Both the position numbers and the translations under genes were made by a program. From assembly GCA_029851245.1 (NCBI GenBank), contig CP099826.1:1-27686 (forward strand): DNA of 27,686 nucleotides, read 5' to 3'. The stretch's first letter is position 1. Every line of letters begins with the position of its first letter. This stretch comes from Candidatus Saccharimonadota bacterium (GTDB taxonomy: Bacteria > Bacteroidota > Bacteroidia > Flavobacteriales > Blattabacteriaceae). The notes under the pieces were generated by a model that made no database searches, had not been told where the DNA came from, and worked only from the letters and a program-made list of their open reading frames with translations. Shown piece after piece: positions 20,554 through 21,678 of the stretch.

Positions 20554-20847
20554 ATGAAATTATTTATAACACCTTTAAGAACATTAAAAACAATTAATTT
20601 ATATAAAAAATATTTAATATATACATTTATATTAAATAAAAGTAATATAAAAATTAATAAATATGAATTAAAAAAATATTTTTATAAAAATTATTTATTA
20701 AAAGTAAAAAATATTAATATAATAAGAATAAAAAAAAAAAAAAAAAAAAAAAAAAAAAAATTTTTAAAAAAAAAAAAAAAAATTAAAAAAAAAAAAAAAA
20801 AAAAAAAAAAAAAAATAAAAAAAAAGAATTTTTTAAGAAAAAAATAA
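20554..20847 (+). CDS. rplW: 50S ribosomal protein L23; C-terminal third is almost pure poly-lysine encoded by very long poly(A) runs
   Basis: Position rplD-rplW-rplB. The N-terminal ~60 aa (ITPLRTLKT....YTFILNKSNIKINKYELKKYF...Y..KVKNINI) fit the L23 pattern (I.P..TEK......N.Y.F.V...A.K..IK.AVE..Y.V.V..VNT). The C-terminal homology is not recognisable in this frame. Confidence 0.75.
   Translation: MKLFITPLRTLKTINLYKKYLIYTFILNKSNIKINKYELKKYFYKNYLLKVKNINIIRIKKKKKKKKKKFLKKKKKIKKKKKKKKKKIKKKNFLRKK
20730..20825 (+). repeat. Homopolymer cluster A31-T5-A17-T2-A31-T1-A9 inside rplW
   Basis: Counted directly: A-run 20730-20760 (31), ttttt 20761-20765, A-run 20766-20782 (17), tt, A-run 20785-20815 (31), t at 20816, A-run 20817-20825 (9). 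The translation K10-FL-K5-I-K10-I-KKK agrees with the ORF track. Confidence 0.9.
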
Positions 20848-20922
20848 AAATTTTTAGTAAAATAATGGTAAAATTTAATAAAAAAAATAAAAATATAAAT
20901 TATTTAAAAATAGAAAATAAAA

Positions 20923-21678
20923 ATGAAGATAATAAAAAAAAAAAAAATTAATAGATTAATATATGGAAAAAATAAAACTGGAGGTAGAAATAATCAAGGT
21001 AAAATAACAGTAAGATATAGAGGAGGAGGCCATAAAAAAAAATATAGAATAATTGATTATAAAAGAAATAAATTTAATATAAAAGCAGTAGTAAAAACTA
21101 TAGAGTATGATCCTAATAGGACGGCATATATTTCATTATTATTATATAAAGATGGTATAAAAAAGTATATTTTATCTATAAAAGGATTAAAAATAGGAAA
21201 TATAATAAAATCTACTAAAGATAATAAAATATTAAATATAGGAGATGCAGCACCTTTATATAATATACCGTTAGGAACTATAATATGTTGTATAGAAAGT
21301 ATACCTGGTAATGGAGCAATATATTCAAGAAGTGCAGGAACTTATTCTAAATTAATTTCAAAAGATAAAAAATATGCTATTTTAAAATTATCTTCAAATG
21401 AAAAAAAATTAGTTTCATTGAATTGTATAGCTACTATTGGAAGTATATCTAATAATAATCATAAATTTAAGAAATTAAATAAAGCAGGTAATAATAGATG
21501 GTTAGGAAGAAGACCTAGAACAAGAGGTGTAGCAATGAATCCTATAGATCATCCTATGGGAGGAGGAGAAGGTAAAGCATCAGGTGGCCATCCTAAGAGT
21601 AGAAGTGGAGTATATTCTAAAGGATTTAAAACACGTAAAAAATATAAAAAATCTTCAAAATATATATTAAAAAAATAA
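20923..21678 (+). CDS. rplB: 50S ribosomal protein L2 (N-terminus shortened by about 25 aa)
   Basis: GGRNNQGKITVRYRGGGHKKKYRIIDYKRNK, EYDPNRTAYI.L, GN.LPL..IP.GT....IE..PG.GA...RSAGT, RG.AMNP.DHP.GGGEG. Confidence 0.97.
   Translation: MKIIKKKKINRLIYGKNKTGGRNNQGKITVRYRGGGHKKKYRIIDYKRNKFNIKAVVKTIEYDPNRTAYISLLLYKDGIKKYILSIKGLKIGNIIKSTKDNKILNIGDAAPLYNIPLGTIICCIESIPGNGAIYSRSAGTYSKLISKDKKYAILKLSSNEKKLVSLNCIATIGSISNNNHKFKKLNKAGNNRWLGRRPRTRGVAMNPIDHPMGGGEGKASGGHPKSRSGVYSKGFKTRKKYKKSSKYILKK

Follow-up and report, generated by a model that had tools for sequence, protein, structure and literature searches.

A long poly(A) tract and a conserved end in a second reading frame in rplW of a bostrichid beetle symbiont

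The subject of this report is rplW, the gene for ribosomal protein uL23 (L23), in Candidatus Shikimatogenerans bostrichidophilus, as found in a stretch of 27,686 nt (contig CP099826.1, positions 1 to 27,686, forward strand; called the window below). In the deposited record the gene is represented by an open reading frame (ORF) of 97 amino acids, which runs into a tract of very long poly(A) runs. The best explanation of the sequence is that rplW is a full-length uL23 gene whose conserved end lies in another reading frame (frame 0), and not a 97-residue protein that ends in poly-Lys. Frames are named here by their codon starts, which lie at positions equal to 1 modulo 3 in frame 1 and at positions divisible by 3 in frame 0.

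Reading frames and the conserved end of uL23

The 97-residue ORF stands in the rplW slot between rplD (19910-20551) and rplB. The genes around it follow the order of the S10 operon (S10, L3, L4, the 97-residue ORF, L2, S19, L22, S3), and this order is kept in all related loci. A protein search gives an exact match to WGH25931.1, annotated as 'MAG: hypothetical protein NHG05_00140' of Ca. Shikimatogenerans bostrichidophilus, on a contig of 173,071 bp; an exact search for the product among genes called on contigs gave no match. The L2 protein of the window is 74-81% identical to that of five genomes of this species, a member of the Bacteroidota that lives in symbiosis with bostrichid beetles. 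S19, encoded nearby, is also found as BDT61503.1 in the 'Flavobacteriales endosymbiont of Rhyzopertha dominica' (AP026967.1, the sister strain), so that the host beetle is Rhyzopertha dominica.

The G+C content is 15% over the whole window and 9.5% around the tract. The tract (20730-20825) consists of A31 (20730-20760), T5, A17 (20766-20782), TT, A31 (20785-20815), T and A9 (20817-20825). It is preceded by AGAAT, and its final T-A9 runs on into GAATTTTTT. No homopolymer in the window is longer than the two A31 runs, and the next in length are A17, A16 and A15; the lengths, positions and rank are as reported in a first-pass annotation of the stretch. A first-order model of the window predicts 3e-6 A-runs of at least 31 nt. 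With the local A content of 0.615 the expectation still rises only to 3e-3, and runs of this length are therefore not expected by chance. Scans with Rfam and for tRNA genes gave no match within or near the tract.

Frame 1 is the only frame open across the first A31, T5, A17 and TT. It gives the ORF at 20554-20847, which reads ...RI-K10-FL-K5-I-K10-I-KKK-NFLRKK up to a stop codon at 20845-20847. Its consecutive Lys codons in the tract number 10, 5, 10 and 3, and all are AAA except the last, which is AAG. Frame 2 is closed by a TAA at T5. Frame 0 had been described in the first-pass annotation as open through the runs, but in our three-frame translation a TAA closes it at 20784-20786, where A17 gives way to the second A31. 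The frame-0 tail reads EFFKKKIKIFSKIMVKFNKKNKNINYLKIENKNEDNKKKKN and ends in a stop codon at 20949-20951; this stop and the 97-residue reading of frame 1 are both as first described. Since frame 0 is closed at 20784-20786 and frame 1 at 20845-20847, a change from frame 1 to frame 0 is confined to 20787-20847. This interval holds the second A31, the A9 and an A7, which places the change within A/T homopolymers of at least 9 nt, as in slippage-rescued endosymbiont genes. One additional A, or a −1 shift, within the last runs suffices to join the two frames.

It had been proposed that L23 might continue in another frame, and that rplW of related symbionts should be compared. The comparison was made and bears the proposal out, the conserved end being found in frame 0. 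The gene is uninterrupted in four related strains (DMIN1, HHAM, SUNI and SANA), where it ends in ...K(I/L)I(I/V)(K/N/E)F(N/K)(K/N)(K/D)... and a short tail, with its stop codon a few codons inside rplB and in the frame of rplB minus 1. These four strains and AP026967.1 all read the homologous DNA in this frame. In the window the rplB-minus-1 frame is frame 0, with the peptide SKIMVKFNKK, and the N-terminal part is in frame 1, which is the frame of rplB itself. KIMVKF aligns on KAIVQL of free-living Bacteroidota L23 and INYL on IDFY, the pattern in the orthologues being K(I/L)(I/M)(I/V)xFNK. The C-terminal β-strand (KKAxVxL type, SKIMVKF and then INYL) is present only in frame 0, and the 97-residue product of frame 1 lacks it. 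FFKKKIKIF had earlier been taken for this strand; the strand is instead KIMVKF (20859-20876).

Could the 97-residue product nevertheless be the real protein, that is, a uL23 with a poly-Lys end in place of its last β-strand, or is rplW becoming a pseudogene? This is the ORF as deposited, its length happens to match that of normal L23, and very degenerate L23 is tolerated in the clade, with 82-87 residues in three strains. We consider it improbable all the same. The strand KxxxVxF/L is kept in every orthologue, the shortest included, and frame 0 stays open over 20787-20951, where it is identical to the in-frame allele of AP026967.1, the two being too close (0.05% divergence) for a test of selection. 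Moreover, uL23 is an essential and universal protein. With runs as long as these some frame-0 product would be expected anyway, by analogy with slippage as described in PMC5009743 and with ribosome sliding (PMC4363877).

A programmed and selected frameshift, giving two uL23 isoforms in a set ratio in the manner of dnaX, is less probable again, to the point that we give it hardly any weight. Two frames with different C-termini do follow a slippery run, but the arrangement is not conserved (DMIN1, HHAM, SUNI, SANA and AP026967.1 are all single-frame), the frame-1 tail NFLRKK has no counterpart elsewhere, and no conserved stimulatory element came up, although none was searched for. The truncated or pseudogene reading and the programmed reading both fit the comparative data poorly.

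Profile searches had been suggested as a test of frame, and generic L23 profiles proved unable to discriminate. With Pfam PF00276 (Ribosomal_L23) the N-terminal 59 residues score 24.0 bits (E = 5e-5), the 97-residue ORF 20.5 bits, the 109-residue form of AP026967.1 23.1 bits, and a fused protein of 132 residues 10.3 bits. None of these forms reaches the curated cutoff of 30.8 bits; the orthologues score 21-34 bits, and L23 of the whole clade is too degenerate for this threshold. The NCBIfam L23 model gave 9.6 bits, below its cutoff of 81 bits. A profile of 19 free-living Bacteroidota L23 scored frame 0 at 3.1 bits versus 0.7 and 0.8 bits, and 62 of 500 shuffles reached the observed score. The failure of generic profiles to tell the frames apart is due to lysine-rich low complexity. 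The frames are resolved by clade-specific profiles only. One built from the four in-frame orthologues gives the frame-0 tail 21.5 bits versus 12.9 and 5.4 bits in the other frames, and when clade and free-living sequences were combined, none of 500 composition-preserving shuffles of the tail reached the observed score.

The position of the tract within the protein was mapped using an alignment (A2) of the AP026967.1 allele, the four orthologues and six free-living L23. Its profile matched the solved uL23 structure of Flavobacterium johnsoniae (7jil_T) end to end, over 1-95, with E = 8e-35, a score that is driven by the free-living rows, so that the match maps positions and is not a proof of membership. 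In the alignment with free-living L23 the Lys run takes the place of the β-hairpin that joins the VNT and KKAxV strands. The runs are thus located in an internal loop, and do not form the C-terminal third of L23 as had been thought. The loop measures 7-9 residues in SUNI, SANA and HHAM, and 23-27 residues in AP026967.1, DMIN1 and TIMP (CP099825.1, the symbiont of Trogoxylon impressum), the six lengths in rising order being 7, 9, 9, 23, 25 and 27; in the window it would be 46 residues long.

In E. coli the uL23 hairpin protrudes into the exit tunnel (PMC6298777). Strain HDB143, from which residues 65-74 are deleted, is viable, and chloroplast uL23 (from spinach), which lacks the loop, is able to substitute in E. 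coli (PMC6298777). The variable element is the same loop as in our clade, where the loops of 7-9 residues in SUNI, SANA and HHAM resemble natural counterparts of the HDB143 deletion. The window, by contrast, has an expansion to about 46 residues, mostly Lys. Variability in the clade and dispensability in E. coli together suggest that this segment, encoded by slippage-prone DNA, is weakly constrained. F-L-K5-I in the insert (frame 1, 20761-20784) can be set beside F-F-K3-I just downstream (frame 0, 20826-20849). The likeness is suggestive only, but the insertion may have arisen as a tandem duplication of the descending arm of the loop that has since decayed and been swollen by slippage in the A runs. 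The features of the region are collected in Table 1.

Table 1. Positions of the features of rplW and rplB in the window
Feature	Position	Strand	Evidence
rplW (uL23) N-terminal part, residues 1-59 (MKLF...NINIIRI), frame 1	20554..20730	+	Between rplD and rplB; Pfam Ribosomal_L23; orthologue alignment
Poly(A)-rich tract, Lys-rich β-hairpin (tunnel) loop of uL23	20730..20825	+	Run lengths; alignment with free-living Bacteroidota L23 and 7jil_T
68-nt insertion relative to AP026967.1; placement within A runs arbitrary	20730..20797	+	BLAST of L081/L090 against the window
Frame-0 TAA, upstream limit for a productive frame change	20784..20786	+	Three-frame translation
Interval for the frame 1 to frame 0 change (+1 A in template or mRNA, or −1 ribosomal shift)	20787..20847	+	
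Predicted rplW C-terminal part, frame 0: EFFKKKIKIF-SKIMVKFNKK-NKNINYLKIENKNEDNKKKKN, then stop	20826..20951	+	Identical to in-frame C-terminus of AP026967.1; orthologue alignment; clade profile
Conserved last β-strand KIMVKF, frame 0	20859-20876	+	
rplB (uL2, 251 residues)	20923..21678	+	Pfam L2_N and L2_C; same start and overlap in all related strains

Strain polymorphism at the tract

AP026967.1 and the window were compared over 20.9 kb, where 10 substitutions and three indels separate them; the indels are a TA-repeat unit of 10 nt, an ATA, and the 68 nt at the tract. The first-pass annotation had urged caution over the homopolymer calls, and rightly, since it is at this very tract that two assemblies of one symbiont disagree by 68 nt. 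In AP026967.1 the tract is AGAAT-A18-T-A9-G, and rplW is an intact gene of 109 residues with the same stop codon as the frame-0 tail of the window. Its product consists of the N-terminus seen in the window, K5-N-KKK, and the frame-0 tail. Because 68 is one less than 69, one further A in the second A31 restores the frame of the window, giving a protein of 132 residues that is AP026967.1 uL23 with an insertion of 23 residues. The earlier statement that an extra A or a −1 slip in the last runs would join the frames is borne out by this result. Elsewhere in these 20.9 kb, every homopolymer of 9-17 nt has the same length in both assemblies, which limits the disagreement to the very long runs.

The two smaller indels lie elsewhere in the window. 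An additional TATATTATAA unit is found between ORFs at 4289-4298, and an additional ATA codon at 8797-8799 makes a tRNA-synthetase gene 864 residues long, versus 863 in AP026967.1.

Independent assemblies were then compared. Logan contigs (k = 31) of four read sets (ERR3173492, ERR3173699, ERR3173722 and SRR18330942) have flanks that are 100% identical to the window, and at position 22171 those of ERR3173492, ERR3173699 and SRR18330942 carry the allele of the window and not that of AP026967.1. All the Logan contigs that reach the tract break there, and none bridges it. The upstream contig of ERR3173699 ends in AGAAT followed by A26, and the downstream contigs of ERR3173492, ERR3173699 and ERR3173722 start with A20-T-A9-G. 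Such k-mers are impossible from an A18 allele, so long runs must exist in other read sets. The symbiont of ERR3173699 differs from the window by five substitutions and in two other homopolymers, which shows that long runs are not confined to a single strain or a single assembly method. A further variant, SRR34373173, has the A18 allele, as AP026967.1 does. The tract is thus a documented strain polymorphism, with A18 on one side and runs of at least 26 and at least 20 A on the other. DMIN1 and TIMP, with A17, share the short allele, which looks like the ancestral state; the long allele looks like the derived one.

It is concluded that the long runs are real, and that their exact lengths are not trustworthy from this assembly. 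The interior T5-A17-TT is present only in the window assembly, and neither it nor the exact counts have independent support. Two single homopolymers elsewhere also differ among the assemblies. At 14241 the window has T9, versus T8 in three Logan contigs, in which L28 is called at 74 residues versus 71 in AP026967.1, which is the same as the window at this position. At 14769-14783 the window has A15, versus A14 in ERR3173699, where a DUF4290 gene is split into parts of 96 and 34 residues.

These data also bear on the suggestion that the 68-nt insertion is wholly or largely a low-complexity assembly artefact, the true sequence being in frame and like that of AP026967.1 (about 18-30 A, then T-A9). 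The suggestion draws on the length of the two long runs, which at exactly 31 nt coincides with a widely used k-mer length, on the restriction of T5-A17-TT to one assembly, and on the A18 of both AP026967.1 and SRR34373173. We regard it as unlikely, since contig ends in three other read sets are impossible from A18. In addition, interruptions such as T5 and TT are atypical of homopolymer-length errors, and a search of the window for T5-A17-TT, as a possible source of a chimeric join, found none elsewhere, so that it was not borrowed from there. The default k values of SPAdes are not known to include 31. The window was assembled from Illumina short reads with SPAdes at its stated default settings and with Geneious (Kiefer et al., 2023; PMC10284843), which also counts against an artefact of this kind. 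The exact length of 31 may reflect an assembler with k = 31; the Logan contigs made with this k break at the tract and do not bridge it.

Bridging the two frames

Expansion of a homopolymer, with trouble for the reading frame, is already known from very small AT-rich symbiont genomes. In our favoured explanation, rplW would be read in frame 1 from 20554 into the tract, and its last β-strand and tail would be encoded in frame 0 up to the stop codon at 20949-20951. The tract would be a hypermutable poly(A)/poly-Lys simple sequence, coding for the weakly constrained β-hairpin loop in the tunnel, and would have expanded by about 23 codons in the strain lineage of the window relative to the sister strain. 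The relation of the frames, the insertion, the polymorphism between strains and the placement in the loop are shown by the data; we infer the site of the missing base, which would lie in the second A31, and the way in which the break is bridged. In-frame templates probably exist, either because the second A31 has been miscounted (being, for example, truly A32) or because the population has mixed run lengths with one of them reported by the assembly; we hold this to be the likeliest reading, at about even odds. The in-frame DNA variants would then be the source of full-length uL23, whose Lys-rich loop would vary in length, and the products would be made still more heterogeneous by slippage in transcription and by ribosomes sliding on the A runs.

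Several observations weigh against this explanation. The gene is out of frame as assembled. Each of the long runs measures exactly 31 nt, which is also a k-mer size often used by assemblers, and this casts doubt on the reconstruction as a whole and not on one base only. To our knowledge there is no precedent for a Lys-rich loop of 46 residues in the exit tunnel. Finally, rplW of TIMP is itself broken, at A17, a length that both R. dominica assemblies call consistently. In TIMP (positions 2665-3010 of locus L002) the N-terminal frame stops just past A17-T7, and KIMIKFNKK..., which forms the conserved end, follows in the −1 frame. With one additional A this gene encodes a protein of 114 residues that scores 34.3 bits, above the Pfam L23 cutoff. 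The break in TIMP suggests that real frameshifts in the tract are tolerated, which favours rescue by slippage.

The alternative, then, is that the genomic frameshift is real and fixed, and that full-length uL23, with a loop of variable length, arises only by error-prone decoding. This could happen by slippage of RNA polymerase on the second A31 or the A9 (+1 A or −2), or by a −1 slide of the ribosome on AAA-encoded Lys. We consider it a serious possibility, although a less likely one than in-frame templates. The assembly is off by exactly one base, inside a run, and rplW of TIMP requires the same +1 A at A17. The DUF4290 gene, split at A14 in ERR3173699 versus A15 in the window, indicates that homopolymer frameshifts recur. 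There is also published support for slippage on poly(A) and for sliding on AAA codons. At long poly(A) runs in Buchnera and Blochmannia, 12-50% of transcripts are frame-corrected, and a tract of 28 A gives about 40% shifting, according to PMC5009743; insertion rates and slippage increase exponentially with run length (PMC5574713); and E. coli ribosomes slide on iterated AAA codons (PMC4363877). On the other hand, the length of a 31-nt homopolymer is unreliable from short reads, the sister strain AP026967.1 is in frame, and a study in mBio reports no frame-restoring events in Buchnera (PMC5574713). In its strongest form, this alternative would have an essential, universal ribosomal protein made only by obligatory slippage of RNA polymerase, the ribosome or both over an 86-nt poly(A)-rich tract, and we give this form the same weight as the alternative in general.

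The closest known cases are the slippage-rescued genes of Buchnera aphidicola and Blochmannia (Tamas et al., 2008, as related in PMC5009743). These are likewise AT-rich, reduced insect endosymbionts, and in them too the frame changes inside a long A run of a needed gene and the downstream frame is conserved. The runs in rplW differ in being about three times longer, in being interrupted by T5 and TT, and in having undergone a 68-nt expansion. A near-identical strain is moreover in frame, so that the break in rplW is possibly not fixed or even real.

The Lys codons of the tract are of the type that causes pausing, extra lysines and loss of frame in E. coli (Koutmou et al., 2015; PMC4363877). 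In that work the runs were inserts in reporters and sliding lowered the output, whereas in rplW it would act on a native essential gene, in an organism with an AAA-rich proteome throughout. Phase-variable loci of pathogens likewise have a coding mononucleotide run whose length varies between close strains and switches the frame. Unlike these, rplW is an essential ribosomal gene, for which switching on and off has no obvious use, and slippage left unrepaired where constraint is weak accounts better for its run variation than contingency switching does. We found no mention of frameshifts, slippage or homopolymers in two papers on Shikimatogenerans, PMC10284843 among them.

Neighbouring genes, annotation and significance

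The stop codon of rplW in frame 0 lies 29 nt inside rplB (overlap 20923-20951), and the overlap contains an A14 (20934-20947) that codes for Lys in both frames. We considered whether the frame-0 ORF starting at ATG 20865 (MVKFNKK...) is instead the lost N-terminus of a frameshifted rplB, joined at this A14. This was rejected, because rplB of all the relatives has its start at the homologous ATG and shares the short N-terminus, and the DNA upstream of this ATG is read in them as the end of rplW. L2 is N-terminally short across the clade, and the Pfam L2_N match begins at residue 21. The L2 of the window is intact and identical to BDT61504.1 of AP026967.1. In the record of the window, accessions are given to L4 (WGH25930.1), the rplW fragment (WGH25931.1), S19 (WGH25932.1) and L22 (WGH25933.1), and none to rplB. 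It follows that rplB is probably unannotated there, or marked as a pseudogene.

Two other features of base composition were observed. The N-terminus of S10 (18933-19000) is rich in Lys and Ile (MKNIKKIIKKKKKIIKKIKVKL) and contains an A16 (18957-18972), making it another poly(A)-coded Lys run in a ribosomal protein. In the region 12000-15000 the G+C content is 7.5-9% over several kb and the ORFs are still intact; this is among the lowest values known to us for coding DNA.

For annotation, the consequence is that the only L23 gene in the deposited genome is a "hypothetical protein" of 97 residues, while the real gene extends to 20951 in another frame, and the gene model is corrected accordingly. 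Mis-annotation of rplW affects the counts of ribosomal proteins that are used to judge the completeness of such genomes.

For the biology of the clade, the comparison shows a uL23 tunnel loop that evolves almost freely: the symbionts of some hosts have lost it, and in one strain it has grown about twofold, driven by slippage on poly(A) in a genome under extreme AT pressure. The clade thereby makes available a natural series of uL23 tunnel-loop lengths. If the frameshift is real and fixed, this R. dominica symbiont lineage would have ribosomes with a heterogeneous poly-Lys tunnel loop in uL23, of up to about 46 residues. The translation machinery would then need errors of decoding to obtain a core component of its own, a natural case of such dependence. 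A break that proves real would provide a clean natural system for studying how far an essential gene can depend on slippage in transcription or translation, with the sister strain, which carries A18 in the same host species, as the control.

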